Under the pieces are notes generated by a model. It was not told the DNA's origin. It did not search any database and was given only the letters and a program-made list of their open reading frames with translations. The position numbers and the translations under genes are program-made. DNA of 64,000 nt from Verrucomicrobiota bacterium (lineage in GTDB: Bacteria; Verrucomicrobiota; Verrucomicrobiia; Opitutales; Cerasicoccaceae): contig JBCBUK010000005.1 of the NCBI GenBank assembly GCA_039818205.1, positions 232,065 through 296,064 of the forward strand, written 5' to 3'. The stretch's first letter is position 1. Every line of letters begins with the position of its first letter. Below, in pieces: positions 33,601 to 62,089 of the stretch.

Positions 33601-34080
33601 GACCAGCGGAGCACCAGGATCATCTTTGATGCGAGAAGCGACGCCCACGGCAGGCAACAGATTGTTGCCCACCGAAACTGGCATACTCATGACATTCAGC
33701 GCCCGGTCCGAGTGCATCACATTCATGTGCCGCCCTGCCGAACAAGAAGCCTCGTTCGCAAACAGAGAATCAAAGAATGATCGAGGCTCGACCCCGCGAG
33801 CGAGCAAAAGAGCTCGATCGCGGTAGTGACAACCCAGCCAATCGTCCGGAGTCAGAAACTCCGCGAGGGTTGCCGTTGCCTCGTGCCCCGCACTTGCAAT
33901 GTGGAAGTGCCCCTCACCTCGAGCGATGATCTTGCGTTCCTCGGACTCGATTTCGCGTGAGCGGACAAGACAGCCATACAAATCCAGGTACCGTTCCAGT
34001 AGATCAGATCGGCACGAATCCGGGGTGGATTCCGCTAAACGGGTCATGGGTTCAACCGGTCGGTCCTTGAAGACATCCAT
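30631..34080 (-). CDS. Fusion of 2-oxoacid dehydrogenase E1alpha + E1beta + lipoyl domain + beta-ketoacyl-ACP synthase III (FabH)
   Basis: HYRDR and TPP motif GDGGVQQG...QDN; LGEDI, NAPLAEA, IQFADF, GPFHTQ; lipoyl IEADKA; FabH triad AGCSG, PHQAN, GNTSSSS and AFGGGFT. Confidence 0.92.
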   Translation of the reverse strand: MDVFKDRPVEPMTRLAESTPDSCRSDLLERYLDLYGCLVRSREIESEERKIIARGEGHFHIASAGHEATATLAEFLTPDDWLGCHYRDRALLLARGVEPRSFFDSLFANEASCSAGRHMNVMHSDRALNVMSMPVSVGNNLLPAVGVASRIKDDPGAPLVYCAIGDGGVQQGDFYEAVGEAVRANLPVLFLIQDNGYALSTTTGGQTFFSLPDGQAESFLGVPIHYWDGVDVIDSREQFGNLCSKIRSTRGPAIAVMRVERLGSHSNADDQQAYRNADTLAENAKFRDPLIEFRKQLLDLGVDNDQLLEIEESARVAVKSAADEARQSADPVLSLEVKAPLSADYVNQTEPKEGRRIDTNGIGVTMRAAMREALHQAMSKDEAVTLLGEDIEDPKGDVFGVTQGLSEAFPDRVRNAPLAEASIMGLTIGQALAGGKPVGFIQFADFLPLIQNLYHNELASMYWRSAGQWNCPVVIMVSCGGYRGGTGPFHTQTLESVLAHSPGVDIVMPSTARDAAGMVNAALASNRPTVILYPKNLINAKLRASSGDVANYWVPIGKAHQCRSGDDVTLVGWANTVPLCEEAAQQLEALGVSAEVIDLRSITPWDEDAIRSSVRKTKRLVVVHEDNGFCGVGAEICACVVEGESVPARVRRVTRPEALVPFNLANQLEILPSVDDIIEAAAELMDLQLGWASDDVESSNIETISAMGVGASDDSVTVVEWLVKEGDTVSVDQDIAIIEADKAAAEMVSPFEGVVEALAVDEGVSISVGDPIMRIRCAEANTTERSSTKNQKKKPYIISTDDAAPLLASGPRSDENTIVRLGAIGIAHGSVEVSNEELLKRFPEKTSDDIVRRTGIESRYWASPEQTPLSLAVEAVEQLLEKTPVAMEDIDLVICSTTTPDRGTPSLAMRVLHALAPEQCCPGYDISAGCSGYLYGLQCAYDFLEGRSGNVLLVTTEVLSRTLDLEDYDTAFLFGDAATATLISARSADSGEPELSDELRLHKPLISGIGESGESLNVPLTDSPDSTAMRGKRVFYDAVRHMTNAMTQACAASGLEMDDLDVIVPHQANQRISRALAKRLSGRPERVWENIRNFGNTSSSSIPLCLSKNWEDLPGNARVALVAFGGGFTFGAAVLDYVSEKAKPADTSE

Positions 34081-38063: not shown

Positions 38064-38732
38064 CTAGCGCCACTTTCGACGGAGAAAAGCCACAGCGGTA
38101 AACGCGGCAACAGCAATCACCATCACGGTTTTGCCAGGCTCCGGCACCTGCGTGATCTGTCCCCGGATTTCTCCAGCTCGAAAAGCAAAGGTGTGCACCT
38201 GGAAATAGAGCTCCCCCGCAAACAGCGCGTCAATCGCATCGCTGAGCGGTACGCTGTCTCCCGGCCCCCGGGAACCATCCGAACCAAAATCAAGATCACC
38301 GTCGTCCCAAAGCCCGGACAGCGATGAGTTGCTGGCATTGACCAGGAGGTCGTCGTCATCCTCTCGGGGAAATCCGTAGACATTGAGAGCGTGAACGTCG
38401 TTCTCCCCCGCGGCCCCAAAATGAATGTGCACGGCGCGAGAGAGGTCGTCGGGACCGGAAAGCGTGGGTCGCGGAACCGTTTCTGAAAAATCGATGCCAT
38501 TGAGCGAAAGCGTATAAGCGAGGGTCGGCCCATCCAAACCTCCCGTCGTCAGCAAGAGCTCCGCGACGCCTGAGGCCGTTGAGATGCCCGCAGGATCGTC
38601 GATTGGGCTACCAGGGACTACCGCCTCAGGCGTCAATATTGCCTCAAAGCGATACATGGCTGCCGACATCGAAGCACTCAGCCCGATGAACAGGCAGATA
38701 AAAACGAGGAGTCGCACGTTGTTTGATACCAT
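38064..38732 (-). CDS. CHRD-domain PEP-CTERM protein
   Basis: Signal peptide; AVHIHFGAAG...GELYFQVHT...GEIRGQI (CHRD); VPEP-TM-RRKWR sorting signal. Confidence 0.88.
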   Translation of the reverse strand: MVSNNVRLLVFICLFIGLSASMSAAMYRFEAILTPEAVVPGSPIDDPAGISTASGVAELLLTTGGLDGPTLAYTLSLNGIDFSETVPRPTLSGPDDLSRAVHIHFGAAGENDVHALNVYGFPREDDDDLLVNASNSSLSGLWDDGDLDFGSDGSRGPGDSVPLSDAIDALFAGELYFQVHTFAFRAGEIRGQITQVPEPGKTVMVIAVAAFTAVAFLRRKWR

Positions 38733-38959
38733 GGTGATTAACTTTATTCCATACTTATATCAGTTCAGGCAACGGGATTGTCGATATTCTCGGATCGCAC
38801 AAAGAGGTCTTGGTCGAAATAAGCCATGCATAAAAATTGAACGACAATATTGAGGGCCTCAATGAATCACAGGTGTCGATCGCGCCCGATTCATGAATAT
38901 CACTAATTCTAATAGCTAAATATCAACTATTCAGGAGACAAAATGGCCAGGCCGGTTCG

Positions 38960-38975
38960 TGGCATGGCATGTGCT
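38960..38975 (+). promoter_or_regulatory. Sigma-54 (-24/-12) promoter of the guanidine-type operon
   Basis: TGGCATGGCATGTGCT = GG-N10-GC, about 40 bp upstream of ATG 39017. Confidence 0.7.
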
Positions 38976-38979
38976 TTCA

Positions 38980-39007
38980 GTATTATGATTTTCCAAAAAC
39001 GTAATAC
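38980..39007. promoter_or_regulatory. NikR-geometry operator GTATTA-N16-TAATAC
   Basis: GTATTA-tgattttccaaaaacg-TAATAC; same spacing as the E. coli NikR site GTATGA-N16-TCATAC; covers the predicted transcription start. Confidence 0.78.
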
Positions 39008-39016
39008 CGCTTAATC

Positions 39017-40018
39017 ATGAAAATGCATATACTATCAAATGTATCTCGCCTATTGGCAATCGCTGCCTTGGGTTTTGCCTCCACAACGCTCCACGCAAAA
39101 GAACCCCTGAAAATCGCCTATAGCGATTGGCCAGGTTGGGTTGCCTGGGAAATTGGCATCAAGAAAGGCTGGTTCGAAGAAGCTGGCGTCGATGTCGACT
39201 TCCTTTGGTTTGACTACGTTGCATCGATGGATGCTTACGTGGCTGGCAAGGTCGACGCGGTATCAATGACCAATGGTGATGCGTTGGTCACTGGCGCCAC
39301 CGGGAAGCCATCGGTCGGCATTATTCTGAATGACTTCTCCAACGGCAATGACATGATTGTCGGCGGCCCGGGAGTTGATTCGATCAAGGACTTGAAGGGC
39401 AAGAAGGTCGGCGTTGAAGAAGGCTTTGTTTGCCACCTGCTTCTGCTCAAAGGGTTATCGGATAACGGTATGTCCGCTGACGATGTGACCATCGTCAACA
39501 CACCAACCAACGAAACGCCCCAGGTGCTTGCTTCGGGCGCTGTCGCAGCAATTGGCGCATGGCAGCCGAACTCAGGTGAAGCCTTGAAAGCGACGCCAGG
39601 CTCTTCACGCATTTATTCATCGGCTGATAGCCCAGGTATCATCTATGACTTCCTTTTCGTTTCTCCGGAGTCGTTGGAGACCCGTCGCGATGACTGGATG
39701 AAAGTGGTTGGCGTCTGGTATCGCATCGTCGACTACTTAAAGGACGAAGACAATATCGACGAAGCGCTCGAGATACTCTCATCACGCGTCAACTTGAAGC
39801 CTTCAGAGTATGAGCCGCTGTTTATTGGCACCCACATCCTCTCGCTCGATGAAGCGCTTGAGCGCTGGAAAAAAGGCGACGGCCTCGGCAGCGTCTACGG
39901 TTCTACTGACTTTGTTGATGACTTCAACGTGAAGTTTGAGGTCTATGAGGAGCCACTCAATACATCTAAGTATTTAGATCCGAGTCTGACAAAAGAATAT
40001 GCGAAGTCCGCGAAGTAG
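39017..40018 (+). CDS. ABC transporter substrate-binding protein (SsuA/TauA-like, urea-carboxylase-associated; probable guanidine-type ligand)
   Basis: Signal peptide; [33 protein letters not shown]; context with cgdAB and a carboxylase. Confidence 0.8.
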
Positions 40019-40045
40019 GGAATCGTGGTATCGTTAAAATAGGTA

Positions 40046-40083
40046 GCTTTGGCACCAAGCCGGATAAGGCTTGGTGCCAAGGC
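40046..40083 (+). other. Strong intercistronic hairpin after the binding-protein gene (mRNA stabiliser or partial terminator)
   Basis: TTGGCACCAAGCC-ggataa-GGCTTGGTGCCAA, perfect 13-bp stem, no U tract. Confidence 0.7.
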
Positions 40084-40109
40084 AAAACCACTGCTGCACT
40101 ACAACTACT

Positions 40110-41507
40110 ATGTCCAAATTCGATCCATGGTTGGCGATACGCAAACCACTGTCGCCACAGCGACAAGCACTACTCACGGTCGTTTCATTCCTACTGCCGA
40201 TCTTTGTTTGGTGCATTGTCAGCTACATACCGTGGCTCTGGCATCCGGACATGGTTGTTACAGTCTCCGCCGATCGCCATGATGTCACCACCGTCTACTC
40301 GGTTGGCGATCGATTACCACGTCACAAAGAAAGCGAAGACGACTTTGCCTTTGTCGATTTCGTCGAAGATGTTCGCGAGCGTAACGAAGAAATTCAAGCT
40401 GCCCGCGATTCTGGAGAGCCGATGGAAAGCTCCCGTCGCGCGAACAAGAAAGTTCTGCGTCACCTGGCACCGGTTGGCATTGCCGAAGGCTGGCTAACAC
40501 GGGACCAGGCCACTGATGATACGGCAATCTACACGCTTTGGGGAGAGATTGCGCGGGGTGAAAAACAACCGTCCAAAGTCCAACTCTCCCAAGAGAATTT
40601 GGCAGTCGTCCGGGACAACTGGAGTAAGGTCGGAGCGATCAGCGAAACCTACGATTCGAAGAAAATCCCGACGGAAATTCTCCTCAATTTAATTCCACAA
40701 GGCAAACCATCCAATCCCGTATTTGTACCCGCACCGCACGAGGTTGTTCAAACGGGCATTTATGATTGGACGCACCAACGCGACCCAGACAAGCCGGCGA
40801 TGTTCGAGCGCTACGGTCACTCGTTGACCATTGTCTTTAGCGGCTTCCTGCTTTCCTGCTTATTTGGCGTCCCACTCGGGATCTTAAGCGGAACCTACGA
40901 CTTTTTTGCCAAAATTGTTGAGCCCTTTACTGATTTCTTCCGCTACATGCCTGCCCCGGCATTCAGCACAATATTGGTCGCCATTTTATCGGTGTATGAC
41001 GCGCCGAAAATCGGCCTGGTTTTTCTCGGCACTTACTTCCAAATGGTGTTGGTCATTTCCAACACGACGCGAACCTTAGACCGCTCGCTTCTCGAAGCTG
41101 CCCAAACCCTGGGCGCCAAGAGCAAAGACATGATGTTCCGAGTCATCATCCCAGGCATCATGCCAAAGCTCTACAATGACCTTCGCATTTTGCTCGGCTG
41201 GGCATGGACTTGGCTCGTGATCGCAGAACTGATCGGAACCAAGTCAGGCTTGACCGAGTTCATTGAGACGCAGGGCCGTTTTCGGAATTTCGACAGTGTC
41301 TACCCAACGATCATCATCATTGGCCTAACCGGCTACGTGACCGACCAAATTCTCGCCGCCCTGCGCCCGCTTTTCTTCCCGTGGGATCCGCAGCATTCTA
41401 GTCAGAAGCTCAATGTGATCATCCGCTTTTTCAAATGGCTCACGAACTCGGAGTGCTACGTAAAGTCCGAGCAAGACACCAAAACACTAACCTCCAACGA
41501 CCAATAG
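40110..41507 (+). CDS. ABC transporter permease (SsuC/TauC-like) with a large soluble insertion
   Basis: [13 protein letters not shown] loop [25 protein letters not shown]; start moved to ATG 40110. Confidence 0.88.
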
Positions 41508-41517
41508 AAGGCTTCCC

Positions 41518-42414
41518 ATGATTGATGAATTGCAATTACCGAGCTATCGGGAACAAAGCCCAGAAGTTGCCAGCCGTTTCAAGTCCATCTATGAGCGACC
41601 CGTTAAGCTGGAGGTCAAAGGGTTAGGCCGAACCTTCAACTCGAACAAGGGTACTGTTCGTGCGCTCCACGATATCAGCTTCAACGTTCACCGCCGCGAA
41701 TTCATCTCGGTCATTGGGCCATCTGGCTGCGGTAAGTCGACCTTGATCCGTATTTTGGCAGGCCTAGATTTCCCGACATCAGGCGAGGCACTGCTCGACG
41801 GTAAAACAATCTTTGGCCCTGGTCGTGACCGCGGAATGGTTTTTCAAGGGTATACGCTTTTTCCTTGGTTAACCGTCAAGAAGAACGTGATGTTCGGTCT
41901 CGAAGTGTCTGGCAGGACAGGATCATCTGTAGAAGCGGAAGCCCGCTCCTGGATTGAGATCGTCGGCTTGGCCGGGTTTGAAAATGCCTATCCAAGCCAA
42001 CTTTCAGGGGGCATGAAACAACGCGTGGCGATCGCCCGATCCCTTGCGAATAATCCAAGCATGCTGTTCATGGACGAACCGTTTGGCGCCTTGGATGCCC
42101 AAACGCGGTGCCAGATGCAATCTTATCTCCTCCAGATTTGGCGCAACGTTGATGTCACGATCATGTTTGTGACGCACGATCTGGATGAGGCGATTTACCT
42201 TTCCGACCGCATCCTCGTGCTCAAAGCCAAGCCCGGGGAGATCAACGAGTTCATCGAAGTTCCAGTTCCCCGCCCACGCTCGGTTGACCAACTCCTTTCG
42301 CCAACCTTCCTCGCAACCAAAAAGCGTCTGGAAGAACTGATTCACCCAGAGGGAACGGAGATCAAGGAGCTCCCGGTAAAACGGTTCGTATCGGCTGACG
42401 AGGAAATTGAATGA
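41518..42414 (+). CDS. ABC transporter ATP-binding protein (SsuB/TauB-like)
   Basis: [36 protein letters not shown]. Confidence 0.95.
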
Positions 42415-43181
42415 CCGGCGCCAAGGCATCAAGTTCATGGGAACACCTGACCTGGCCGGAGATTGGCCAGCGGCTGGAAAGCGGCCAAGACGCTGCGATC
42501 CTTCCCGTGGGTGCAACCGAACAACATGGCCCCCACTTGGGCGTCGGCATGGACACGGCCTTGGCTGAACGACTGGCGCTCGCCGTATCGGCGTCGACTG
42601 GCGTTCCCTGTCTGCCAGCGCTCCCCTATGGTTGTTCAATAGGGCATTCTCACCGCTGGCCAGGCACCTTGGCGCTCAACCCGAAAACGCTCATTGATGT
42701 CATCGCCGACATTGGCCGTTGGTTCTACAAGAGTGGAGGCCGTCGCCTCTTTCTTGTCAACGGGCACGTAGGCAACCGTGCTCCCTTGCGCTGTGCGCTC
42801 GAAGTACTCCGAGCGGAATGTGAAGACTTCAAGATCGCGATTTTTACCACCGGCGACATCAGCGACCGCGTCGCGGCAGCGTTTTCTCAAGACGCAGCAG
42901 ACTGGCATGCAAATGCGGCCGAAACGGCCCTTATGATGCATCTTAGCCCAGAATCCGTTCGATTCGATCGGGTCCAGGACGCCGATGATCCGGATCGCAC
43001 CAACGATTGCGTTTTTGCCCACCCGGTAAACCGAACAAGCCTTAACGGTGTGACCGGCAAGCCATCGACGGCGACTTCCGCAATGGGCGAACAGCTGTTT
43101 GCGATCATGGTCGATGACCTCAGTGAACACATCATGAAGGGCCTGCAGGAGGCGTCGCCCCTCGAATTCCCCTACAACTAA
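42411..43181 (+). CDS. Creatininase/MftE-family amidohydrolase
   Basis: [19 protein letters not shown]...D, SIGH...[21 protein letters not shown] overlap with the upstream gene. Confidence 0.88.
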
Positions 43182-43198
43182 GCCACAAGGAATTTACG

Positions 43199-44617
43199 AT
43201 GAACTTGACCGAGTATACCGCACTGCCCTTTCAGAAATCTCAGGGAAACGCCTATGGCACACTGCCGGGTGACGAAGAAATCAACGCCGTTCGCAACACC
43301 TTGGCTGAGGCAGGAGTAAAATACGTAACCGGTGCCTATGTCGACATTCATGGCGTCCCCAAAGGTAAAGTCGTTCCGCTGTCGCATTTTGAGAGCTTTG
43401 CCAAAGGATCGGAGCTCTACACGGGCTACGCGCTCGATGGATTGGGCCAGCTTCCAAATGACGATGAAATCTGCTCGATTCCAGATCTGGGCAACATCGT
43501 TCAGCTTCCTTGGCAGCCGGAGATGGCCTGGATGCCGGCCGACAATGGATTCAAGGGGGAGCCCTACGAAGTTAACACTCGTGTCATTCTCCAGAAGGTT
43601 CTCAAGAAAGCAGAGTCGATGGGCTTCGGTTTCAACCTTGGTATCGAATGCGAGTTATTTGTCCTGCGCAAGCTTGCCGATGGCACTATTGAAATTCCAA
43701 ATCCTGAGGACAAGCAGGTAAAGAGCTGCTACGACCTCAACGGGTTCATGGCCCGCTTTGACTGGCTGGACAAAATGGCAACCACCATCGATGCCCTCGG
43801 GTGGGACCTCTATTCCTTCGACCACGAGGACGCGAATTCTCAATTCGAATTCGATTTCAAGTATGCTGATGCCCTGACCATGTGTGATCGGTTCATCTTC
43901 TTTCGCTTGATGGCTAAACAGTATGCCCAAGAAGAAGGCTTAGTTGCTTCATTTATGCCCAAACCCTTTGCCGACAAAACCGGCAGCGGTGCCCACTTCA
44001 ATATGTCGCTGTTTGACCTGGAGAGCGGGTCCAATCTTTTCGCCGATAGCAACGACACTCGCGAACTCGGACTCAGTAAACTCGGCTATCAATTCTGCGC
44101 GGGAATCCTCAAGCACGGACCAGCGCTGTGTGCCGCCTTTGCGCCAACCGTGAACAGCTACAAGCGCCTCGTCCGCCGCGGCCTAATGGCCTACTACTCA
44201 TGGGCGCCGGTATTCAATTCCTACGGCAGCAACAACCGAACCAACTCCTTACGCATACCGATGGACGGAGGCCGGGTCGAGTCGCGCAACGCCGACGCAT
44301 CCTGCAACCCCTATTTGGCGGCCACGCTAGCCTTGGCAGCTGGACTTCAAGGGATCGAAGAAGACCTCGATCCCGGAGAGCCCCAGGAGGACAACCTCTA
44401 TGCGCTTAGCAAGGAGCAGCTGCATTCGCGCGGGATCGATGAATTGCCTCGGAGTTTGCTGGAGGCAGTCGAAGCTTTTGCCGAAGACCCGTTCGTCGCC
44501 GAGGTCCTTGGAGATGGCCTGCGAAATGAATTTATTACCTACAAATCTGAGGAATGGCGCCAGTTTCATCAACGGGTTCACGCATGGGAAATTGATGAAT
44601 ATTTGCTCAAATTTTGA
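43199..44617 (+). CDS. Glutamine-synthetase-family ligase of the GlnT / gamma-glutamylmethylamide synthetase (GmaS)-like group
   Basis: [38 protein letters not shown]...[24 protein letters not shown]. Confidence 0.82.
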
Positions 44618-44624
44618 TCCCGCG

Positions 44625-44652
44625 GTATTAACAATTTGCCAAAAATTAATAT
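44625..44652. promoter_or_regulatory. Second NikR-geometry operator GTATTA-N16-TAATAT
   Basis: GTATTA-acaatttgccaaaaat-TAATAT, 36 bp upstream of the NikR-like gene; the spacer shares TTT.CCAAAAA with the 38980 site. Confidence 0.72.
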
Positions 44653-44688
44653 TGAATTGATCCCTGGAAACGCTAATCCATCAACCTT

Positions 44689-45138
44689 ATGACGGACCCC
44701 ATTGAGAGAATCAGCATATCGATGCCGAAGCGCCTAATCGAACGATTGGACGATATGAATGCGCGCCGGGGTTTCGATAGCCGCTCTCAGGCAATCGCTT
44801 CGATGGTCGAACAGCAGCTGGTTGAATACGATGAAAGCCTCGGGGAAGAGGTCATGACTGGAACCATCACCATCGTCTATGACCAGTCAAAGAACAATTT
44901 GAAGAAACGCTTAGCGGAAATCGAATACGAGAACATTGCCGAGGTGATTAGCTCGCTGCACGTGCTGCTCGAGAATGAGCACACCATGGAGGTCATTCTG
45001 GTCCAAGGTCCGGGCAAAAAACTACGCCACATCGCAGACCAACTAGTTTCCTGCAAAGGGGTAAAGAATGGAACCATGAGCCTCCACAGTGCCCTTATTC
45101 CACCGCTTCATTCGAAATCAATTAGCAAAAAGAAATAA
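44689..45138 (+). CDS. NikR-family ribbon-helix-helix regulator with a degenerate nickel site
   Basis: RISISMP...[20 protein letters not shown]...SSLHV...[11 protein letters not shown]-like domain. Confidence 0.85.
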
Positions 45139-45866
45139 TGTCTGAAACTCCTCCCCTCTTATATAACCGCCGAATCGGTGGCGGCCAAATGTGGTCAAAG
45201 GTCATCGGCCGAGGCAAATGCCTCAAGATAACCGACCTCGAAGGCGGTGCCAACGTCGGTATGATGCTCTACAATGCCAACGAGAAAACAGAGCGCTACA
45301 ACATGCCCGATACCCTCAAAGGGCAAAAGATCTTTTACCTAAGGGCCCCCTACTGCCTGCACTCCGACATGGGCCGGCTCTTTGCCTCGATTGTCGACGA
45401 TACGGTTGGCTGGCACGACACCGTCTGTGGCTCAACCAATGCTACCATGGTCGAATCCAAGTATGGTACGAACGACTATCAAGATGCGCGGAACGATTGG
45501 TACCGCAATGGACGTGACTGCTTCCTGATCGAACTTGGTAAATGGGGAATGGGCGAGCGCGACCTGATCCCGAATATCAACTGGTTTAGTAAAGTCAGCC
45601 CTGACGAATCGGGCAAACTCACCTACCAGAGCGGCAACTCACCAGCTGGCGCAAGCGTGACCCTGCGCTTCGAGTTGGACACCCTGGTTGTGCTTAATAC
45701 CTGCCAGCACCCGCTGGACTCAAACCCGACCTACGACCCCAAACCGGTTCAACTCGATGTCCTTCCGGCGCCAAGTGTGAGCGAGGAAGACCCCTCTCGG
45801 TCGATTCGGCCGGAGAATGGACGCGCGTTCCAAAACACTGAAGAATACAACCGCCTACGCTTCTAA
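45138..45866 (+). CDS. cgdA: Carboxyguanidine deiminase subunit A (DUF1989, urea-amidolyase-associated protein 1)
   Basis: [40 protein letters not shown]. Confidence 0.88.
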
Positions 45867-45869
45867 CTT

Positions 45870-46514
45870 ATGAGCAACTTTACCGAAAGCAGTCTTATTG
45901 AATCCGACGCCGTTTATAGTAAAGTCGTACGGGCCGGTGACTTTTGGATCCACCAGATCAATGCCGGCCAAACGCTGCGCATCGTCGACCTCGAAGGAAA
46001 CCAAGCCGCAGACACTCTCTTTTACAACGCCGATGATCCGGACGACCGCTACAGTGCGTGCGATACGATTGCCGCACAACAAGCCCTCTACCTAACTTCG
46101 GGTACGCGGCTCATGTCCACCCGTGGAACTGAACTGCTGAAGATCGTCGCCGATACCTGTGGTCGGCACGACACCTTAGGCGGTGCCTGTTCGCGCGAAA
46201 GCAACACGATGCGCTATGCGATGGACAAAGAGCCCATGCACGCGTGTCGCGATAGCTTTTTGCGCGGGGTGCAAAGTTGGAGCCCTCACCTCGATAAGCG
46301 AGATGTCACCTGCAACATCAACTTTTTCATGAATGTTCCCGTGTCTCCCGATGGCCAACTTGATTTTGCCGATGGCGTTTCAGCCCCAGGCCGGTACGTA
46401 GAGATGCAAGCGACCAGTAATGTGATCTGCTTGATATCCAACTGTCCGCAACTCAACAACCCGTGCAACGCCTACAATCCCACACCAGTTCAGGTCTTGA
46501 TCTGGGACTCCTGA
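45870..46514 (+). CDS. cgdB: Carboxyguanidine deiminase subunit B (DUF1989, urea-amidolyase-associated protein 2)
   Basis: [48 protein letters not shown]. Confidence 0.9.
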
Positions 46515-46527
46515 AACCCCGACCCAT

Positions 46528-49500
46528 ATGTTCAAAACGATCCTGATTGCCAATCGAGGAGAGATTGCTTTGCGCATCTTGCGCACCGCCCAGCGGATGA
46601 ACATTCGCACGGTAGCAATTTACTCCGAAGCAGACTCGCAAGCACCACACGTTTACCAGGCCGATGAAGCCATTTGCGTTGGCCCACCATCCGTCGCAGA
46701 GAGCTACCTCAACCAAGAGAAGATTCTGCAAGCAGCGTTGCAGTGCGGCGCCGAAGCGATCCATCCTGGCTATGGCCTGCTAAGCGAGTCCGCCGAGTTT
46801 GCGCAAGCTTGTGCTAACCGTGGTATTGTCTTTATCGGTCCGCGAGTCGAGCACCTCCAACAGTTCGGGCTAAAGCACGCAGCTCGCGAACTGGCTTTGG
46901 CTTCTGCCGTACCTTTGGTACCAGGGACCGACCTTCTCGGTTCGCTCCAGACGGCAAAGCAAGAGGCGGAGAAGATTGGATTTCCGGTGATGATGAAAAG
47001 CACTGCCGGTGGTGGTGGCATCGGCATGGAGGTTTGCCGCTCGATGGACGACCTCGATGCATCCTTCGATCGCGTCCAGCGCCTCGGCCAATCCAACTTT
47101 GGGCAAGGTGGAATTTTTCTTGAGAAATACGTTGAGCGAGCCCGCCACCTTGAAGTGCAAATCTTTGGAGATGGCAAAGGCAATGCCGTGTCTTTAGGAG
47201 TCCGGGACTGCTCGAGTCAGCGGCGAAACCAAAAAGTTATCGAGGAAACGCCGGCATGCGGGGTTCCCGAAAGCGTGATCAATGGACTGCAGGCGGCCGC
47301 GATTCGGCTGACCGAAAGTGTCGGGTATCTCTCAGCGGGCACTGTTGAGTATATCTACGACGTCAACGCCAGCACGTACTACTTCCTCGAAGTCAACACG
47401 CGCCTGCAAGTCGAACATGGCGTGACGGAAGAAGTGGTCGGAGTCGACCTCGTCGAGTGGATGATTCGGCAAGCAGCTGACGATCTGCCCAACCTGGACT
47501 TACCCAGTGAGCGTCCAGGTGGACACAGCATCCAGGCCCGAATTTATGCGGAGGATCCGGACAAGAATTTCCAGCCCTCAAGCGGCCTATTAAATCATGT
47601 GTCGTTCCCCGAGAGCATTCGATGCGACCATTGGATCTCTTCTGGCACGGAGGTCACCAGCCACTATGATCCACTACTGGCGAAGCTGATCGTGCACGCC
47701 CCGACTCGCGAAGAGGCAATTGCAGAGCTCCATGCGGCGCTTGAGCAAACCGCCATCTACGGAATTGAGACGAACCGCGAATATTTGAGTGCCCTGGTCC
47801 AGAGCGATCTCCTTCGGGAGAATAAGATGACCACGCAATCGCTCAAAGCATTTCAGTATGAAACCCTGACCATCGATACGCTTAAGTCCGGTGTTCAAAC
47901 GACTGTGCAGGACTATCCGGGACGCGTCGGCTACTGGGAGGTCGGGGTCCCGCCTTCGGGCCCGATGGACAGCCTTTCTTTTCGCTTGGGCAACCGGCTT
48001 TTGGGTAACGATGAATCAGCGGCCGGCCTCGAAACAACACTGGAAGGCCCGACTCTACGGTTCAACGCCCCAACCACAATCGTGCTAACGGGCGCGGAGA
48101 GCGATGCGAAGCTTAATGGGCAAGCGCTGAGCTTCTGGGAGCCGATTGAAATCGCGTCCGACGATGTTCTGGAAATGGGACAGGTCACCGGTATCGGTAT
48201 GCGTACTTATTTGTGTATCGCTGGTGGGTTAAACGTCGCGGACTACCTGGGCAGCAAATCAACCTTTACGCTTGGGAAGTTTGGCGGGCACGGCGGCCGC
48301 CCACTCCAAACCGGTGACGTTCTCCACGTCAATCGCTCAAGCAATGCGATCGCGGCCAAAGCCTTACCCGCCGAGTATCGCCCCAAGATATCAAACCAGT
48401 GGACTATCAACGTACTCTATGGTCCACACGGGGCACCCGATTTCTTTACCGATGATGATATCGAGACGTTCTTCGCCACCGAGTGGGAGGTGCATTTTAA
48501 CTCGGCCCGGACTGGGGTTCGCCTGATCGGACCCAAGCCGCAATGGGCCCGTCCCGACGGCGGCGAGGCCGGACTTCATCCATCCAATATTCACGACAAT
48601 GCCTACGCGATCGGAGCAATCGATTTTACGGGAGACATGCCAGTCATTCTCGGCCCAGACGGGCCAAGTCTCGGTGGCTTTGTTTGCCCAGCGACTGTTG
48701 CCTTTGCCGACCTCTGGAAGATCGGACAGCTTCGGCCAGGTGATCGAATCCGATTCGAATGCATTGACCAAAGTAGCGCTGCGCTACTGGTAAAAAACCA
48801 AGAGAACCTCGTCAACGCGCTTCGCAACGAGGAAACTCCAGCAGTGCCGTGTATTACTCCAAAGGCAACGGATCTCATCCTCACAGAGACGGGCGACGGC
48901 AACGAGCGAATGGTCATTCGGCAATCCGGAGATGACAATGTATTGATCGAATTCGGACCTCCACTCCTGGACCTCCGACTGCGATTTATCGTCCACGTAT
49001 TCTATGAGCAGCTACTCAAGAATCGACTAGAAGGAGTCATCGACCTCACACCCGGAATTCGTTCTCTCCAAATTCATTTCGATCGGGCCGCGTTGGAACT
49101 GGATTGTGTTCTGGAGTGGCTGCTCGCCCATCACGCGGACCTCAAATCTCTAGAGGAACAGAAAGTATCCTCGCGCATCGTCCACTTACCGCTTTCGTGG
49201 GACGACCCTTCGACGCAGCTAGCTGTTTCTCGCTACATGCAAACGGTTCGTCCCGATGCGCCTTGGTGCCCGAATAACCTGGAGTTTATCCGCCGAATCA
49301 ATGGACTTGAATCGGTCGATCAGGTGCGGGAAATCGTCTTCAACGCCAGCTATGTTGTACTCGGCTTAGGGGACGTCTACCTTGGCGCTCCAGTCGCAAC
49401 TCCTTTGGACCCGCGTCATCGGTTGATCACGACAAAGTATAACCCAGCCCGAACCTGGACTCCGGAGAATGCCGTGGGAATTGGCGGAGCGTATATGTGT

Positions 49501-50118
49501 GTCTACGGTATGGAAGGCCCGGGCGGGTATCAGTTTGTCGGTCGCACCCTTCAAATGTGGAACCGCTATGGAAGCGTCGATGCATTTCATGACGACAAGC
49601 CCTGGTTACTTCGGTTTTTTGACCAGATTCGGTTTTTCCCAGTTTCGGCCGATGAACTCACGCAGATCCGAAAAGACTTTCCCCAGGGCAGGTATCCGAT
49701 AAAAATTGAGCAGAGCTCCTTTGACCTCCACGAATACGAGGCGATGCTCGCCAAGAACGATGCCGATATCCAGGCGTTCAGGAGTCAACAGCGTGAGGCA
49801 TTCGATGCGGAACGTGGGCGCTGGAGCGACACGGACCAGCGTTCGGACCTGGACGAGGTAGCCGTGGATTCGACAAGCGATATCGAGCTACCTGAAGGCT
49901 CTCAGGCTATTGAGAGCTCAGTATCGGGTACGGTATACAAAGTGCTAGTTAACGAGGGTGACCACGTTCAAAAGGGCCAAACGACCCTGGTGCTCGAGTC
50001 GATGAAAATGGAAATTTCGGTATGCAGCCCTTATGCGGGCGAAGTGATGCATGTCGCCGTTGCAAATGGTGGCTTCGTCAAACCTGGCGATCGGCTTTTG
50101 GCGGTTCGCTCAGACTAA
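46528..50118 (+). CDS. Biotin-dependent guanidine carboxylase (urea carboxylase family, Asp type)
   Basis: [58 protein letters not shown]; follows cgdAB. Confidence 0.88.
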
Positions 50119-50177
50119 TCACTGCGCATAAGAAATTTGCATTGAGAAATATGTGATTCGTTTTTCAATTGAGAACA

Positions 50178-50870
50178 ATGTCTTCGTCAAAATCGAATAC
50201 TAAGAAAAATCGAAGTGAAGATATCTTTAATATCCTGCAAAGTCGGATCCTCTCCTGGGAGTATCAACCTGGGCATCGATTGAAAGAGGATGAGCTTTGC
50301 CGAGAGTTCGATGTCAGCCGAATTCCCATCCGGGAAGCTCTTAGCCGCCTCAGTCAAATCCATTTGGTGGAGCGCAAGGCCCACGTCGGCTGTTCGGTAA
50401 AGCGTTGGACACTGGAGGAAATTAATGAACTCTATGAGTTTCGTGTCGCATTGGAGACCTATGTTGTTGAGGCGCTTGCCCAGAAAGAGGATCCCATTGC
50501 CGAACTAAAAGAACTCAAAAAGGAATGGCAGGGCTACCTAACCGAAACGGATGACACCAGTTTTGCCCAAAAGAATTGGTCTACCCGGGACGAACACTTT
50601 CATGAGACGCTGGCCGCTGCACTTGGAAACCAACAGATTCTAAATTCGCTGCAAGACGTGAACTCTCGGCTTCGGTTTTTGCGCGTCCAGGACATCACGA
50701 CGCAAGAGGTTTTAACGAAAAGCAGTAAGCAGCATATCTCCATTATCAACGCGATTCGACGCAGCGACGACGAGTCCGCGAAAAAGTTGATGCGAACCAA
50801 TATTCAGATGGGTAAGGGCAACGTAAAGAGCGCTCTACAGCAAGTTCTCATGCGCTCCTATGAAGATTAG
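50178..50870 (+). CDS. GntR-family (FadR/FCD) transcriptional regulator
   Basis: PGHRLKEDELCREFDVSRIPIREAL; FCD motifs DEHFH and QHISII; start ATG 50178. Confidence 0.92.
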   Translation: MSSSKSNTKKNRSEDIFNILQSRILSWEYQPGHRLKEDELCREFDVSRIPIREALSRLSQIHLVERKAHVGCSVKRWTLEEINELYEFRVALETYVVEALAQKEDPIAELKELKKEWQGYLTETDDTSFAQKNWSTRDEHFHETLAAALGNQQILNSLQDVNSRLRFLRVQDITTQEVLTKSSKQHISIINAIRRSDDESAKKLMRTNIQMGKGNVKSALQQVLMRSYED

Positions 50871-50880
50871 AATGACCGCG

Positions 50881-52659
50881 CTAGCTGCCTGCTAGGCTGG
50901 ACATATACCGCCGCCACGACTGTAGATGGGTAATCTCAGTGGAACCTTCCACAGCGCAAGCCTCGGCGATAAAGCCCATGCACTCGACATCGCCCTTAAG
51001 GAAAACACGACCGAGACCGAGCGGAGCGCCGATGCCCTCCAAGAAACTCCCAAGCGTTTCACGCGGCAGCTGCCAAACCTCAACAGCGATGCTACTCCCG
51101 TGCATGGAATCTCTAACCAAAGCGGGCCGTCGGGGCTCGCCTTCGAGGGCAAACAACCGGTACATCGGCAAGGTCTCCGTCTTACGAACAAACCGACCGT
51201 TCCGCTCTAGCAGCTGAAAATTCAGTGGCATATCTTTCATGTGCGCACCACAAACCACGATCGGAACCAGACTATCCAAATTCTTTGATTCAGCAATGAC
51301 TTCCGGTGGGCTTAACTTACTCGTACCCATGGTCAAACCTGTCTTTGCGTGCAGCTCACCCGCAATCTCCAACAGGTCAAGATCCCTACCCGAACCGGCA
51401 AATAGTGTTACACCATGCGGAAGGTTGTCCTTACGAAACGCTACTGGTGTTGCAACTGCAGCAAGGTCAAAAAGGTTCATGAAATTCGTGTAGTAACCCA
51501 ACTCAGAATTCAGCGCGAGAGGCTCGTTGAGAACTTGCTCAGTCGTGTAGACGGTGCCGCATGTCGGAGTCATGATTCCATCAACTTGTTCTAGAACCTC
51601 GTCACCCAATCGCTTCAAGTCTTTTAGTTTATACTCAGCCCGAAAATAGTCGACCGCTGACGCCCGGTTACCCTGCTCAATGATCTGACGAGTGACCGGG
51701 TGGAGAATGTCTGGCCGTTCGGCGAGAATACTTTCTAACACAGAGTAACGTTCAGCCAACCAAGGCCCCTCATACAGCAAGCGAGCGGCATCTTTGAAGG
51801 GCTCAAAGTCAATCTCAACGACGTCATAACCAAGTTCGCGAACTAAATCGATTGCCTTGTCAAAAACGATCTTGGTCTGTTCATCACCGAAAAACTCCAA
51901 CTGCTCCGATTTCGGTATCCCAATTGATTGTCGGCGACTACCAGCCTGCAGCGAAATGCTCACCGCATAAGGATCTTCGGCATCGTAGCTTGCAGCAACT
52001 TCCAAGACCGCTTGAGCATCAGCATTTGAAAGCGCAAATATTGAAACGCAATCCAAACTGCGACAGGCGGGGACTAATCCCGTCGTGCTCAAAAGACCTC
52101 GACTTGGTTTTAGTCCAACAATGTTATTCAAAGAAGCCGGGATTCTTCCCGATCCCGCCGTATCAGTCCCAAGTGCAAACGAAACCAAGCCTTTGGACAC
52201 CGCGACCGCAGAACCAGAACTGGATCCGCCCGGAATGTATCGTGGATCAAACGGATTCGATGGAATGCCGTAGGGAGAGCGAGTTCCCACCAGGCCCGTC
52301 GCGAACTGATCAAGATTCGTTTTACCGATCGGAATCGCTCCGGCATCAATTAGTTGTTGAACAACGTAGGCGGAATTGGTCGGAGTGTATGCATAGTCGG
52401 GACACGCGGCAGTTGTCGGAACGCCTGCCAGATCTAGGTTATCCTTAACTGCAAACGGTATACCATAGAGCGGGTGTGTTTCCGGTGACTTGTCTTTCAG
52501 CTTTTCAACATAGACGGCTATTTCCTCACGTGAGAGGACGTAGATCCAGATCGCGGGATCCTCAACTCGAATGCGGTCCAAGACACAGTCAAGCACCGCT
52601 TGCGGATGGATCTCCCGATTGGCGTATTGCTTAATCAAGTTATCAATTGAAATATTCAT
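50881..52659 (-). CDS. atzF: Allophanate hydrolase
   Basis: LYGIPFAVKDN, GKTNLDQFATGLVGTRSPYG, GGSSSGS, GTDTAGSGR, C-terminal VCGAHM domain; start ATG 52659. Confidence 0.93.
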   Translation of the reverse strand: MNISIDNLIKQYANREIHPQAVLDCVLDRIRVEDPAIWIYVLSREEIAVYVEKLKDKSPETHPLYGIPFAVKDNLDLAGVPTTAACPDYAYTPTNSAYVVQQLIDAGAIPIGKTNLDQFATGLVGTRSPYGIPSNPFDPRYIPGGSSSGSAVAVSKGLVSFALGTDTAGSGRIPASLNNIVGLKPSRGLLSTTGLVPACRSLDCVSIFALSNADAQAVLEVAASYDAEDPYAVSISLQAGSRRQSIGIPKSEQLEFFGDEQTKIVFDKAIDLVRELGYDVVEIDFEPFKDAARLLYEGPWLAERYSVLESILAERPDILHPVTRQIIEQGNRASAVDYFRAEYKLKDLKRLGDEVLEQVDGIMTPTCGTVYTTEQVLNEPLALNSELGYYTNFMNLFDLAAVATPVAFRKDNLPHGVTLFAGSGRDLDLLEIAGELHAKTGLTMGTSKLSPPEVIAESKNLDSLVPIVVCGAHMKDMPLNFQLLERNGRFVRKTETLPMYRLFALEGEPRRPALVRDSMHGSSIAVEVWQLPRETLGSFLEGIGAPLGLGRVFLKGDVECMGFIAEACAVEGSTEITHLQSWRRYMSSLAGS

Positions 52660-52708
52660 TGCTGAAATCGGATTCACAAATACTTGGGAGATCTGGCTGG
52701 GAACGCAA

Positions 52709-55700
52709 TCACTCCGGCTTGATACCAACTAACTGCTGGCCTGTTCGCACCGGCGAACCCTCCTCAGTCAGAATCTGCGCAACTTTACCGCTAACGGTCG
52801 CCTGCACCGAAATCTCCATCTTCATTGCCTCGACAATCAGGATAGTTTGCCCGGCTTCGACAACTTCATCTACGCCCACGACAATCTTCCAAACGTTGCC
52901 ATTGATATGGCTGCAAACTGCTTCTACGCCATCAGGAAGGTCGGCTTCTTCGGGCGGCTCGGGCTCAAATGAGTCTGTCACGGCATTCTGGCCAGCCGCT
53001 TCCCACCGTTCCCGCTCCTCTTCGAATGCTTTCTGTTGTCGCGCCTTAAACGCGGCAATGGACTCAGCGTTTTCATCCAGAAACTCGTTGTACTCCTTCA
53101 GGCTAAAGTCCTGCTCCTCGATTTTAACCTCAAACGTGCCAGCGTGGAAGTCACGTCGCATCTCGACGAGTTCTTCCTCTTCGACCGGATAGTATCGCAC
53201 CTGGTCGAAAAACCTAAGAAGCCAGGGTTTTCCTTCCTCGAAGGGTCCCGTCTTGAGATAGCGATTCCAAATGGGAACTGTTTGACCAACGAGCTGGTAT
53301 CCACCGGGGCTATCCATCCCATAGATGCACATATAGACGCCGCCGATCCCCACCGTACCTTCGGCCGTCCAAGTGCGAGCAGGATTATACTTGGTCGTTA
53401 GCAAACGGTGTCGCGGATCAACCGGCACCGCCGCCGGCGCGCCCAGGTAAACGTCACCAAGCCCCATGACCATGTAGCTCGTACTGAAAACGATATCTTT
53501 CACCTCATCGACTGATTCAAGACCGTTGATGCGACGCATAAATTCGATATTGGACGGGCACCACGGAGCATCCTTACGGACAGATTTCTCATACTTGCGA
53601 ACTGCAGCCTGAGTCATCTCATTGTTCCAGCTCATCGGCAGATGAAGGACACGGGTCTTGATCACCATTTCCTCAATTGGTGGAAGCTCTTTCTCCGCCG
53701 CAACCAGCAGGTCCAGAAGCGCCTGCAGCCGAATCACCCGTGAGTCGTAGTGGAGCTGCAATGACCGAACGCCTGGTGTGATATCGATCAGGCCCGGGAT
53801 CGGATTCTTGTCGATCCAATCCATCAAGGCGTAGATGCGGAAGCGGAAATTCAAGTCGAGAACGATGGGACCGTATTCGATTAGGAGATACTTGTCTCCG
53901 CACGGCCGGTAGTTGACCTCCACTGGCAACTCTCCCTTCGGCAGAGTCACCGCCACGCAGGGCTCACGCTCCAACCCATCAGTCAGCTCATTAACGACCG
54001 CCTGATCGAGTTGTTGAACCCCGGCGTCCTGCAGCTCCTCCAGCGTATTGGCCGCTACCTGGGTGACGCAGGTGAAGCGAATGGAATCACCCGGACGTAA
54101 TTGACCAATCATCCAAAGGTCTGCTTGCACGATCGTTACTGGGCAAACGAACCCACCCAGGCTTGGTCCATCGGGTCCAAGTATAATCGGCATGTCCCCG
54201 GTAAAATTGATCGCGCCAATCGCATAAGGATTGTCGTGAATATTCGACGGGTGGAGACCTGCTTCGCCACCATCTTTACGCGCCCACTGCGGCGTACTTG
54301 GGGCAATCAACCGGATGCCGGTCCGGGCAGAATTATAGTGGACCTCGAACGTTGATGCCAAAAATGTATCGATATCCTCTTCAGTAAAGAAATCGGGCGC
54401 GCCATGGGGACCGTAGGTTACCCGGATCTCCCACTCATGATTATACTGGGGAATGAAGTCCCCCGGCAATTGGCGTGGGACGGTCTCTCCGACCTGATCG
54501 GGTTCCAGGAGGTGCAACACATCCCCTGGCAAGAGAGTCCGTCCACCATGGCCACCAAAGTTACCCATTGAGAAGGTCGCCTGACTGCCGAGATAAAAGG
54601 GAACATCAAAGCCACCGGCAACAGCCAGATAGGCGCGGCAACCCACAGAGGTAATCTTACCGAGCTTTAACACCGAGCCTGCCGAAACTGTCAACGTTCG
54701 CCACATCTGGACGGGCAACCCATCCAAGTCTGCCTCGATCGGAGCACCCGTGATAGCGATGCTCGCGTCTTGGTTGAACTTGAGCGTCGGCCCAATCAAA
54801 GTGATTTCGAGAGCCGCGATTCCTTCCTCATTCTGCACCAGGCGATTGGCCAACCGAAAAGAAAGGTTATCCATTGGCCCCGATGGCGGAACCCCGATAT
54901 CCCAGTACCCGATTCGGCCAGGGTAATCTTGAATGCTCGTTTGCGTTCCCGGGGTAATGACATCGACCCCGGTAGTCGGATACGAGAAGTCTTTAAGAAA
55001 CGCGGTTGTGATCGTGCCTTGTTTGAAATCAGGCGTCGCCACGATTCGACTCAAGTATTCTAGATTCGTTTCGATCCCGTGCAATGCGGTGGCATCCAAC
55101 GCTTCACTCAAAGAGGCGATGGCCGCTTCCCGCGAGTCCGCCTTCACGATGAGCTTAGCGAGGAGTGGATCGTAGTTTGGTGTTACCTCGGTTCCCGTGG
55201 CGATCCAGGTGTCGCAACGCACGCCTTCTGGAAACACAACCTCTGAGAGCACGCCCGAAGACGGCTGGTAGTTCTTACGGGGATCTTCAGCGTAGATCCG
55301 AACTTGAATCGAGTGGCCAGCGGTTGTGACAGAATCAACCCCTGCGGTCGGATCCTCCCCCCCAGCCAAGGTCAACATCCATTCGACGAGATCGACGCCC
55401 GTAACTTCTTCGGTCACCCCATGCTCAACCTGCAAGCGCGTATTCACCTCGAGGAAGTAGAACTCCTCGGTATCCACATTGACCAAAAACTCGACGGTTC
55501 CCGCCGATCGATACGCAATGGATGACGCGAGTCGCTGCGCGGCCTCGGTAAGGCCCGCCCTTAAACTGTCGGAAATGTTCGGTGCAGGTGTTTCTTCAAT
55601 CACCTTCTGGTTTCGGCGCTGTGCTGAACAATCTCGCTCGCCCAACGTAACGACGCCCCCCTGCCCGTTTCCAAAGATCTGAACTTCAATATGGCGAGCC

Positions 55701-56311
55701 CGGCCGACGAACTTCTCCAAGTAAATACCCGCCTGCCCAAAGTTAGTCATGCTTAGGTGCTCCACCTGCTCATAAGCCGCTCGGAGACTGCCGGGCTCCT
55801 CGCAAATGCGCATCCCGATGCCGCCCCCACCAGCGACGCTCTTAAGCATGACCGGATAGCCAATCTCGTCCGCCCGCTCCAAAGCTTGGTCCGCCGACTC
55901 CAGCAAACCCGTTCCAGGCAACATCGGAACATTGGCTTTCGATGCCAGTTCACGGGCCGTGTGTTTTAGGCCGAACTGATCAATTTGAGAAGGTGTCGGC
56001 CCGATAAAGCGAATCCCTCGATCTTCACAAGCCTGAGCGAAGTGTAGGTTCTCACTCAACAAGCCATACCCCGGATGGATTCCATCAACCCCGGCGTCCT
56101 CTGCAATCTGCAGGATCTTCTCGATATTTAGATAGCTCTCAGCGACGGATGCCGGGCCCACTTCATACGACTCGTCGGCCATATGAACATGTGGCGTATG
56201 CCGGTCGGGCTCGGAAAAAATAGCAACTGTCGGTATCTCAAGCTTCCGACAGGAGCGCATGATGCGGCAGGCAATCTCACCACGATTTGCGATCAAAACT
56301 TTCTTCAACAT
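52709..56311 (-). CDS. uca: Biotin-dependent urea carboxylase (Asn type)
   Basis: [51 protein letters not shown]; between urtE and atzF. Confidence 0.9.
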   Translation of the reverse strand: MLKKVLIANRGEIACRIMRSCRKLEIPTVAIFSEPDRHTPHVHMADESYEVGPASVAESYLNIEKILQIAEDAGVDGIHPGYGLLSENLHFAQACEDRGIRFIGPTPSQIDQFGLKHTARELASKANVPMLPGTGLLESADQALERADEIGYPVMLKSVAGGGGIGMRICEEPGSLRAAYEQVEHLSMTNFGQAGIYLEKFVGRARHIEVQIFGNGQGGVVTLGERDCSAQRRNQKVIEETPAPNISDSLRAGLTEAAQRLASSIAYRSAGTVEFLVNVDTEEFYFLEVNTRLQVEHGVTEEVTGVDLVEWMLTLAGGEDPTAGVDSVTTAGHSIQVRIYAEDPRKNYQPSSGVLSEVVFPEGVRCDTWIATGTEVTPNYDPLLAKLIVKADSREAAIASLSEALDATALHGIETNLEYLSRIVATPDFKQGTITTAFLKDFSYPTTGVDVITPGTQTSIQDYPGRIGYWDIGVPPSGPMDNLSFRLANRLVQNEEGIAALEITLIGPTLKFNQDASIAITGAPIEADLDGLPVQMWRTLTVSAGSVLKLGKITSVGCRAYLAVAGGFDVPFYLGSQATFSMGNFGGHGGRTLLPGDVLHLLEPDQVGETVPRQLPGDFIPQYNHEWEIRVTYGPHGAPDFFTEEDIDTFLASTFEVHYNSARTGIRLIAPSTPQWARKDGGEAGLHPSNIHDNPYAIGAINFTGDMPIILGPDGPSLGGFVCPVTIVQADLWMIGQLRPGDSIRFTCVTQVAANTLEELQDAGVQQLDQAVVNELTDGLEREPCVAVTLPKGELPVEVNYRPCGDKYLLIEYGPIVLDLNFRFRIYALMDWIDKNPIPGLIDITPGVRSLQLHYDSRVIRLQALLDLLVAAEKELPPIEEMVIKTRVLHLPMSWNNEMTQAAVRKYEKSVRKDAPWCPSNIEFMRRINGLESVDEVKDIVFSTSYMVMGLGDVYLGAPAAVPVDPRHRLLTTKYNPARTWTAEGTVGIGGVYMCIYGMDSPGGYQLVGQTVPIWNRYLKTGPFEEGKPWLLRFFDQVRYYPVEEEELVEMRRDFHAGTFEVKIEEQDFSLKEYNEFLDENAESIAAFKARQQKAFEEERERWEAAGQNAVTDSFEPEPPEEADLPDGVEAVCSHINGNVWKIVVGVDEVVEAGQTILIVEAMKMEISVQATVSGKVAQILTEEGSPVRTGQQLVGIKPE

Positions 56312-56316
56312 TTCAC

Positions 56317-57872: not shown

Positions 57873-57877
57873 GTCAT

Positions 57878-59005: not shown

Positions 59006-59022
59006 CGCAAATTATCCATGGA

Positions 59023-60711: not shown

Positions 60712-60748
60712 GTTTCAGGTGGGGTGATCGAAATGTGGGATGAGCTTG

Positions 60749-60785
60749 GGCTCTCGGTAGAAATAACCGGTTTCCACCGAGAGCC
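60749..60785 (-). other. Intercistronic hairpin between urtA and urtB
   Basis: GGCTCTCGGTAGAAA-taaccgg-TTTCCACCGAGAGCC; 15-bp stem with one G-U pair in the minus-strand RNA. Confidence 0.7.
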
Positions 60786-60814
60786 TTCGCTTCAATATAT
60801 CCCAATGCAGACCA

Positions 60815-62089
<1,275 letters not shown>

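Follow-up and report, generated by a model that had tools for sequence, protein, structure and literature searches.

The locus raises the question of what a protein of the NikR family, known for its nickel sensors, does among genes of the guanidine-carboxylase type, and to which signal it responds. The gene concerned lies in a 64-kb stretch of DNA from a member of the Verrucomicrobiota, which was analyzed as a whole and is called the window here. In the best explanation of our results, to which we assign a probability of roughly 0.55, positions 44689-45138 encode a pathway-specific NikR-family regulator of the guanidine-type cluster, which would repress this cluster via two DNA dyads under the control of a signal other than nickel at the canonical site. 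The features of the cluster are as follows.

38960-38975, plus strand: sigma-54-type -24/-12 promoter element TGGCATGGCATGTGCT, 4 nt 5' of operator 1.
38980-39007, strandless: predicted operator 1, GTATTA-N16-TAATAC, with 1 mismatch to the clade consensus GTATTAC-N14-GTAATAC; it ends 9 nt before the ATG at 39017.
39017-40018, plus strand: NMT1-type periplasmic substrate-binding protein of an ABC importer (Pfam NMT1 and NMT1_2).
40071-41507, plus strand: ABC importer permease (Pfam BPD_transp_1).
41518-42414, plus strand: ABC importer ATPase (Pfam ABC_tran).
42411-43181, plus strand: creatininase-family hydrolase (Pfam Creatininase, 5.8e-69).
43199-44617, plus strand: type III glutamine-synthetase-like (GS-like) ligase, GmaS-like (TIGR03105, 621 bits).
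44625-44652, strandless: predicted operator 2, GTATTAA-N14-TTAATAT, weaker, with symmetric changes at positions 7 and 22; it ends 36 nt before the ATG at 44689.
44689-45138, plus strand: NikR-family regulator of 149 aa (RHH and NikR_C domains), with Y80/H91/L93/T99 at the Ni-ligand positions.
45138-45866, plus strand: DUF1989 protein of the UAAP1 type, called CgdA by gene order only (PF09347; TIGR03425, 319 bits).
45870-46514, plus strand: DUF1989 protein of the UAAP2 type, called CgdB by gene order only (PF09347; TIGR03424, 324 bits).
46528-50118, plus strand: biotin carboxylase of the urea/guanidine carboxylase type, 1196 aa (TIGR02712, 1829 bits).

The first-pass annotation had described the genes that flank the regulator gene as being of the guanidine-carboxylase type, and the domain and NCBIfam matches agree with this description. 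The pair of DUF1989 proteins (UAAP1 and UAAP2) adjoins the urea-carboxylase-type enzyme, and the matches to TIGR03425, TIGR03424 and TIGR02712 are all above the cut-offs. Independent support comes from related loci, in which a guanidine-II riboswitch lies directly before the carboxylase gene. Guanidine is a candidate substrate: guanidine-II precedes orthologues of the carboxylase gene in 18 loci, and guanidine-I precedes cgdAB in 7 arrangements; the window cluster itself is without a riboswitch. The name guanidine carboxylase pathway is one that we take from the literature to apply to the window cluster. The creatininase-family hydrolase scored under the NCBIfam cut-offs for creatininase and MftE, and its best PDB match was creatinine amidohydrolase (3e-25). 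The best PDB match of the GS-like ligase was 9qur, a glutamate--methylamine ligase (1.9e-111), and this likeness hints that the GS-like/creatininase-like pair may act on a methylated amine.

The window also contains a separate urea-type set of genes on the minus strand (50169-62089 region), which encodes an allophanate hydrolase, a second carboxylase that is 55% identical to the first one and five Urt-like transporter proteins. An allophanate hydrolase gene is missing from the guanidine-type operon itself. Between the two sets is a GntR/FCD gene (50169-50870), which was matched in none of the related loci searched. Elsewhere in the window, a minus-strand ORF of 1149 aa (30631-34080) fuses E1 dehydrogenase, transketolase-like, lipoyl and KAS III domains.

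The regulator has the two-domain build of E. coli NikR. Its N-terminal RHH domain matched PF01402 (24.4 bits against a cut-off of 20.5) and its C-terminal domain, of the beta-alpha-beta-beta-alpha-beta type, matched NikR_C (PF08753, 83.3 bits). The AF2 monomer model had a pLDDT of 81.9, the top Foldseek matches were all NikR, and the C-terminal domain superposed on those of NikR with an rmsd of 0.9-1.2 A. This C-terminal tetramerisation domain is one that we take to be ACT-like. HMMER alignments to the solved chains of P. horikoshii (2bj1, E 2.2e-28), H. pylori (2ca9) and E. coli (1q5v, query residues 6-130 on chain residues 2-126) placed Y80, H91, L93 and T99 at the positions of the H, H, H and C ligands. 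Residues 80/91/93/99 correspond to residues 76/87/89/95 of E. coli NikR, an offset of 4. The high-affinity Ni site of the E. coli protein is square-planar and consists of His76', His87, His89 and Cys95, a ligand set given in PMC7055735. The first-pass annotation had proposed a NikR-fold protein without the canonical Ni site, in which H76 was replaced by Y, H89 by L and C95 by T, with H87 kept; domain matches, alignment and fold comparison all agree with it. The closest solved relative is NikR of P. horikoshii (37-38% identity), which was the best match in both sequence and fold. Different from the window protein, P. horikoshii NikR possesses all four ligands, and the P-P-x-H tail is a feature of the window protein. 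The regulator nevertheless scored 117.6 bits under the NCBIfam equivalog NF003381, above the cut-off of 105. Annotation pipelines would thus call it NikR, which the ligand positions contradict.

The loss of the nickel site extends to the relatives of the regulator. Cys was found at position 99 in none of the 120 nearest 90%-cluster proteins and in none of 81 proteins from the related loci. The ligand signatures of the 120 cluster representatives were HHHT (60), YHLT (24), YHHT (6), RHQR (5) and others. Among the best 150 of 1194 representatives at 50% identity, 69 had H,H,H,C versus 81 that did not, and the top 34 were all non-canonical. In a quick ML tree of 152 rows, from which 19 fragments had been dropped, 65 H,H,H,C rows and 4 variants were split from 83 non-canonical rows with an SH-aLRT of 96. 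The non-canonical side includes the window protein, 18 locus proteins and a second paralogue of the window's genome. The regulator belongs to a sister clade of canonical NikR that is large and Cys-less. Each of the 65 full-length canonical representatives had H66, the conserved second-shell His, in addition to H,H,H,C, and R41, H66, H80, H93, C99 and L100 were invariant in canonical NikRs and variable in the Cys-less clade. Residues invariant in the clade and specific to it were E85-V-I, S89, Q106 and a tail of P138-P139-x-H141. The R7-x-S9-x-S/T11 pattern of the RHH strand was conserved among the locus proteins. The C-terminal P-P-x-H tail, which lies in a part of the model with low confidence, had P138 in 81/81 and H141 in 76/81 clade proteins and was missing in 80% of canonical NikRs.

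The second NikR-family gene of this genome is on another contig (C15:102244-102696, which is locus L087:1318-1770). It encodes a protein of 150 aa that is 30% identical to the regulator and also misses the Ni ligands. The gene is divergent from genes for an Urt-like ABC transporter, an acetamidase/formamidase-like protein and an FmdB-like zinc-ribbon protein, all assigned by eye from translations, and two candidate inverted repeats (CAGATGG-N15-CCATCTG and ATGTTG-N16-CAACAT) are 5' of it. No orthologue of it above 35% identity was found among 151 Verrucomicrobiota genomes.

Given that the window protein has lost three of the four ligands as well as the conserved second-shell His, the signal of the regulator is not nickel at the canonical site. 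The genome points in the same direction: we found in it no canonical NikR and no gene for urease alpha, NiFe hydrogenase, NicO or an arginase-family protein, and the operator pattern described below is confined to the guanidine-type cluster, with no nickel-enzyme or NicO gene among its targets or elsewhere in the genome. The regulator might still sense Ni or another metal at a rebuilt site. Availability of the metal for urease or guanidine hydrolase would then shut off the ATP-costly, nickel-free carboxylase route, and there is an earlier prediction of a comparable kind, in which NikR represses an isozyme that does not depend on nickel (PMC545781). Proteobacterial members keep metal-type residues, either H80/H91/H93/H98 (HHHHT) or C80/H91/H93/M99 (CHHQM), and with three or four such residues metal sensing by those members is conceivable. 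In addition, H91 and the clade-specific H141 are nearly invariant, and the clade regulator is the sole NikR-family gene in 3 of the 4 proteobacterial genomes checked. Against this, the window protein retains just H91 of the four ligands and lacks H66, the metal enzymes named above are missing from its genome, most verrucomicrobial members combine R80 with Q93 or L93, and Methyloversatilis has, besides the clade regulator, a canonical H,H,H,C NikR next to a hydrogenase gene. Metal sensing by the regulator is therefore quite improbable in our judgment.

Both 28-bp dyads of NikR geometry that the first-pass annotation had pointed out, at 38980-39007 and 44625-44652, are present. In E. coli, the NikR operator is GTATGA-N16-TCATAC (PMC7055735). 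Similar to the NikR/nikABCDE system of E. coli, a dyad of 6+16+6 nt is found at the promoter of an ABC importer operon in the window. Different from that system, the half-site in the window is GTATTAC, the residues at H76/H87/H89/C95 are Y/H/L/T, the promoter is of the sigma-54 type, and the target consists of guanidine-type import and catabolism genes instead of nickel uptake. The dyad also resembles the predicted NikR box of delta-proteobacteria, GTGTTAC-N13/14-GTAACAC (PMC545781), with which it shares 7-nt half-sites and the same spacing and from which it differs by one base per half-site. The delta-proteobacterial boxes, however, are found ahead of genes for nickel transporters, and their cognate proteins have H,H,H,C.

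With one mismatch allowed, GTATTA-N16-TAATAY occurred in the 64-kb window only at the two dyads, where 0.10 occurrences were expected from 100 shuffles. The whole genome of 4,853,681 bases contained exactly 2 copies of this pattern, both at this cluster. Operator 1 was the genome's best site against the 7+7 clade consensus. Operator 2 had 3 mismatches in 14 positions, and about 50 other places of the genome scored as well. At chance level by score, operator 2 thus depends on its position, its symmetric changes and the TTT(T/G)CCAAAAA that the spacers of both operators have in common. The closest relative, L001, had just a 25-nt look-alike at the position of operator 2.

The related loci place the dyads on firmer ground. 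A scan of species genomes confirmed 485 relatives of the regulator, and the best 80 of these 485 loci were examined, in which genes were called by tblastn only. They comprised 39 loci from Verrucomicrobiota, 37 from Pseudomonadota, 1 from Kiritimatiellota and 3 of unknown phylum, and related genomes among them are non-independent samples. In all 80 loci, the regulator gene was beside cluster genes. Genes for cgdA/B were found in 72, the carboxylase in 67, ABC importer parts in 62, allophanate hydrolase in 53, the GS-like ligase in 37 and the creatininase-like hydrolase in 32 of the 80 loci, and counterparts of the binding protein, 51-83% identical, were found in 56. The association was also seen from the other side. 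When metagenome loci were collected around the GS-like gene instead (the best 80 of 219 relatives), 46 of these 80 had the regulator gene, and among 151 Verrucomicrobiota genomes 17 had cgdB, of which 13 had the regulator within 7 kb. The other 4 are of one genus.

These four genomes (G002, G010, G013 and G136) had cgdB-like genes in tandem pairs, and neither a NikR-family protein (E<=1e-10) nor guanidine-I was matched in them. The creatininase-family hydrolase and the GmaS-like ligase (42411-44617) appear as fixed passengers of the importer operon.

Within the 1.318 Mb of the 80 loci, 31 exact, 35 one-mismatch and 23 two-mismatch dyads were found, versus 0-1 exact and 0-2 one-mismatch sites in ten shuffles. 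All 66 sites with at most one mismatch were within 400 nt upstream of a binding-protein, regulator or cgdA gene, and 32 sites in related loci preceded the regulator gene. The dyad was present in 72 of the 80 loci, and 5 of the 8 loci without it end short upstream. The resulting consensus is GTATTAC, an AT-rich N14 and GTAATAC. This phylogenetic footprinting upholds the prediction that the dyads are operators. It also bears on the notion that they are chance AT-rich palindromes or generic promoter parts to which the regulator does not bind, a notion to which the chance-level score of operator 2 against the 7+7 consensus lends some weight. With about 1 site in shuffles against the 66 found, which occupy the same two kinds of position in three phyla, a pattern that is present just twice in the genome and an architecture equal to that of known NikR boxes, this notion is extremely improbable.

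The promoter of the importer operon provides a further clue. As consensus for sigma-54 promoters we used what we take to be the standard one, TGGCAC-N5-TTGCA, and a sigma-54-like match was one with GG and GC fixed and at most 3 mismatches, located 5-20 nt before the operator. Such an element preceded 38 of 40 operators of importer genes, the other 2 being not assessable, and 42 of 68 operators overall, where about 0.036 were expected per window searched. Operators before the regulator gene had it in 4 of 28 cases, and no such element was found ahead of operator 2 in the window. The window's genome encodes rpoN and at least 5 strong activator domains. Relative to the sigma-54-type promoter, operator 1 extends from about -2 to +26. 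An operator predicted to lie directly behind a sigma-54-type promoter fits the geometry of a repressor acting on a promoter of the nitrogen type. A sigma-70 promoter was also considered; the one weak match, GTGGCA-16-TATTAT (38959-38986), was at chance level, none was found at operator 2, and the sigma-54 reading superseded it. Among the sequencing runs listed for 38700-46600 there was no RNA run, only a DNA run.

Taken together, the regulator would act as a NikR-like tetramer, as its fold and the 28-bp dyad suggest, with one RHH dimer on each half-site of GTATTAC-N14-GTAATAC. Bound to operator 1, it would block transcription of the operon for the importer, the creatininase-like and GS-like proteins, the regulator itself, the DUF1989 pair and the carboxylase. 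Operator 2 would place the regulator gene, the DUF1989 genes and the carboxylase gene under a second control, weaker and autoregulatory. Sigma-54 promoters take nitrogen input through an activator. Nitrogen limitation would enter via the sigma-54 activator, and the repressor would add a signal specific to the cluster.

Genes of this kind are commonly under the control of guanidine riboswitches. The full Rfam library was applied to the window and to 18+8 related loci. In the whole 64-kb window, there was no match at the gathering score, and nothing relevant at E<=10 in 37500-64000. Guanidine-I (RF00442) had no match in the genome, which is 99.97% complete, and a guanidine-II-like double hairpin was found in neither the window nor the genome. 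These results bear out the first-pass annotation, in which no guanidine riboswitch had been seen at the cluster. Under stricter filters, guanidine-I was found in none of the 151 sampled Verrucomicrobiota genomes. A custom guanidine-I model, built from 8 proteobacterial examples so that divergent elements may escape it, gave a single match of borderline score (L118, 21 bits, E 0.0099) across the 80 GS-like-anchored metagenome loci (best 80 of 219; 977 kb), where an importer cassette headed by a guanidine RNA was not seen. Guanidine-I was present on a contig labelled Verrucomicrobiaceae (L058), together with a proteobacterial-type regulator.

In Pseudomonadota, regulator and riboswitches coexist. 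Guanidine-II was between cgdB and the carboxylase gene in 7 of the 18 loci scanned with Rfam, and in a pattern search 19 of 37 proteobacterial loci had it in the operon of the regulator, 18 of them before the carboxylase gene. Its location inside these operons (L006-L079; for instance, L007:12012-12058) implies a separate translational control of the carboxylase alone. In 7 split arrangements (L073, L058, L069 and the genomes of L061, L068, L070 and L053), a separate cgdAB operon is headed by guanidine-I, and the operator is carried by the other operon with the importer, creatininase-like, GS-like and regulator genes. Taken strictly, the anti-correlation between regulator and riboswitches that the first-pass annotation had anticipated is rejected by these 19 loci and 7 arrangements. 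Its proposal that the regulator is there in place of a riboswitch stands in part. As the split arrangements and the Verrucomicrobiota data suggest, the regulator takes the place of the riboswitch at the 5' ends of single operons, and across the phylum here; as a general rule of exclusivity, the proposal fails on the proteobacterial coexistence. Similar to guanidine-I (ykkC) and guanidine-II (mini-ykkC) control, the regulator is associated with the same kinds of genes, and its operator is at the 5' end of an operon as guanidine-I is in the split arrangements. Different from both, it would be a protein acting on DNA instead of an RNA.

As effector, we consider guanidine or a closely related guanidino compound most likely, imported by the linked importer and acting as an inducer, at a little short of an even chance. 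Such a substrate-type inducer is favored by the local regulon, by a sigma-54 promoter that is able to carry the nitrogen signal and by the lack of any other guanidine sensor found in the genome. Coexistence with riboswitches, a distinct importer group and the variable old site call for caution. Where guanidine riboswitches are beside the regulator, its sensing of guanidine would in part duplicate theirs. In 4 of 5 genomes with split arrangements, moreover, the riboswitch operons hold their own NMT1-type importer parts, whose binding proteins are 28-38% identical to the regulator-linked one; the regulator-linked importer, and hence the effector, may thus concern another compound.

Two different inputs would also fit the coexistence with guanidine-I and -II riboswitches if the regulator sensed nitrogen status, with guanidine specificity coming from the riboswitches only. 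A small metabolite, for instance glutamine, would then bind the ACT-like domain as a co-repressor in the manner of NikR. The liganded form of NikR is the one that binds DNA, and ACT domains that bind amino acids are known. However, sigma-54-type promoters already carry nitrogen input and would make another nitrogen sensor superfluous, the regulon in the window's genome consists of one cluster only, and the Verrucomicrobiota would be left without any substrate-specific control. We regard nitrogen sensing as unlikely.

The former Ni site itself is not conserved. Among orthologues with the same gene context, its residues diverge as RHQHT, RHLHT, HHHHT, YHHQM and CHHQM, and such wide variation speaks against a ligand pocket that is conserved precisely there. 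E85, S89, Q106 and P138-P139-x-H141, the invariant residues specific to the clade, are located elsewhere. Both observations would suit a cluster repressor with another signal, such as a pathway intermediate (allophanate, carboxyguanidine or urea) or a protein partner, or one with no effector at all, in simple autoregulation. Local regulators of uptake and catabolic clusters, however, usually answer to a substrate or an intermediate, and on the whole such other signals also seem unlikely to us. A pathway-specific repressor with a non-nickel signal, most likely a guanidino compound, is the reading that we prefer.

A wider reading is put forward more tentatively. The clade may represent the first protein transcription factors that sense guanidine or a close guanidino compound, in which the Ni site was dismantled and the effector domain rebuilt. 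They would be inducible repressors on sigma-54 promoters and, in Verrucomicrobiota, would take over the function of the guanidine-I riboswitch. Of the nearest NikR-family sequence space, about half (81/150 representatives) might then consist of non-nickel regulators of small nitrogen compounds that are annotated as NikR.

A 2025 review (PMC12186494) names riboswitches as the only known guanidine receptors, and the NikR family is currently treated as uniform nickel sensors (bioRxiv 10.64898/2026.05.01.721428). No published description of a NikR-type regulator in guanidine clusters was found in the open-access literature searched. The regulator is a candidate for the first protein switch of the guanidine pathway. 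Given that a large Cys-less sister clade is tied to guanidine clusters, the name NikR is probably a misannotation in hundreds of species; one scan confirmed 485 relatives. A repressor at the start site of a sigma-54 promoter would be an unusual control design. In phyla without detected guanidine-I, genetic studies and biosensors of guanidine use would come within reach through a protein regulator whose operator is defined.
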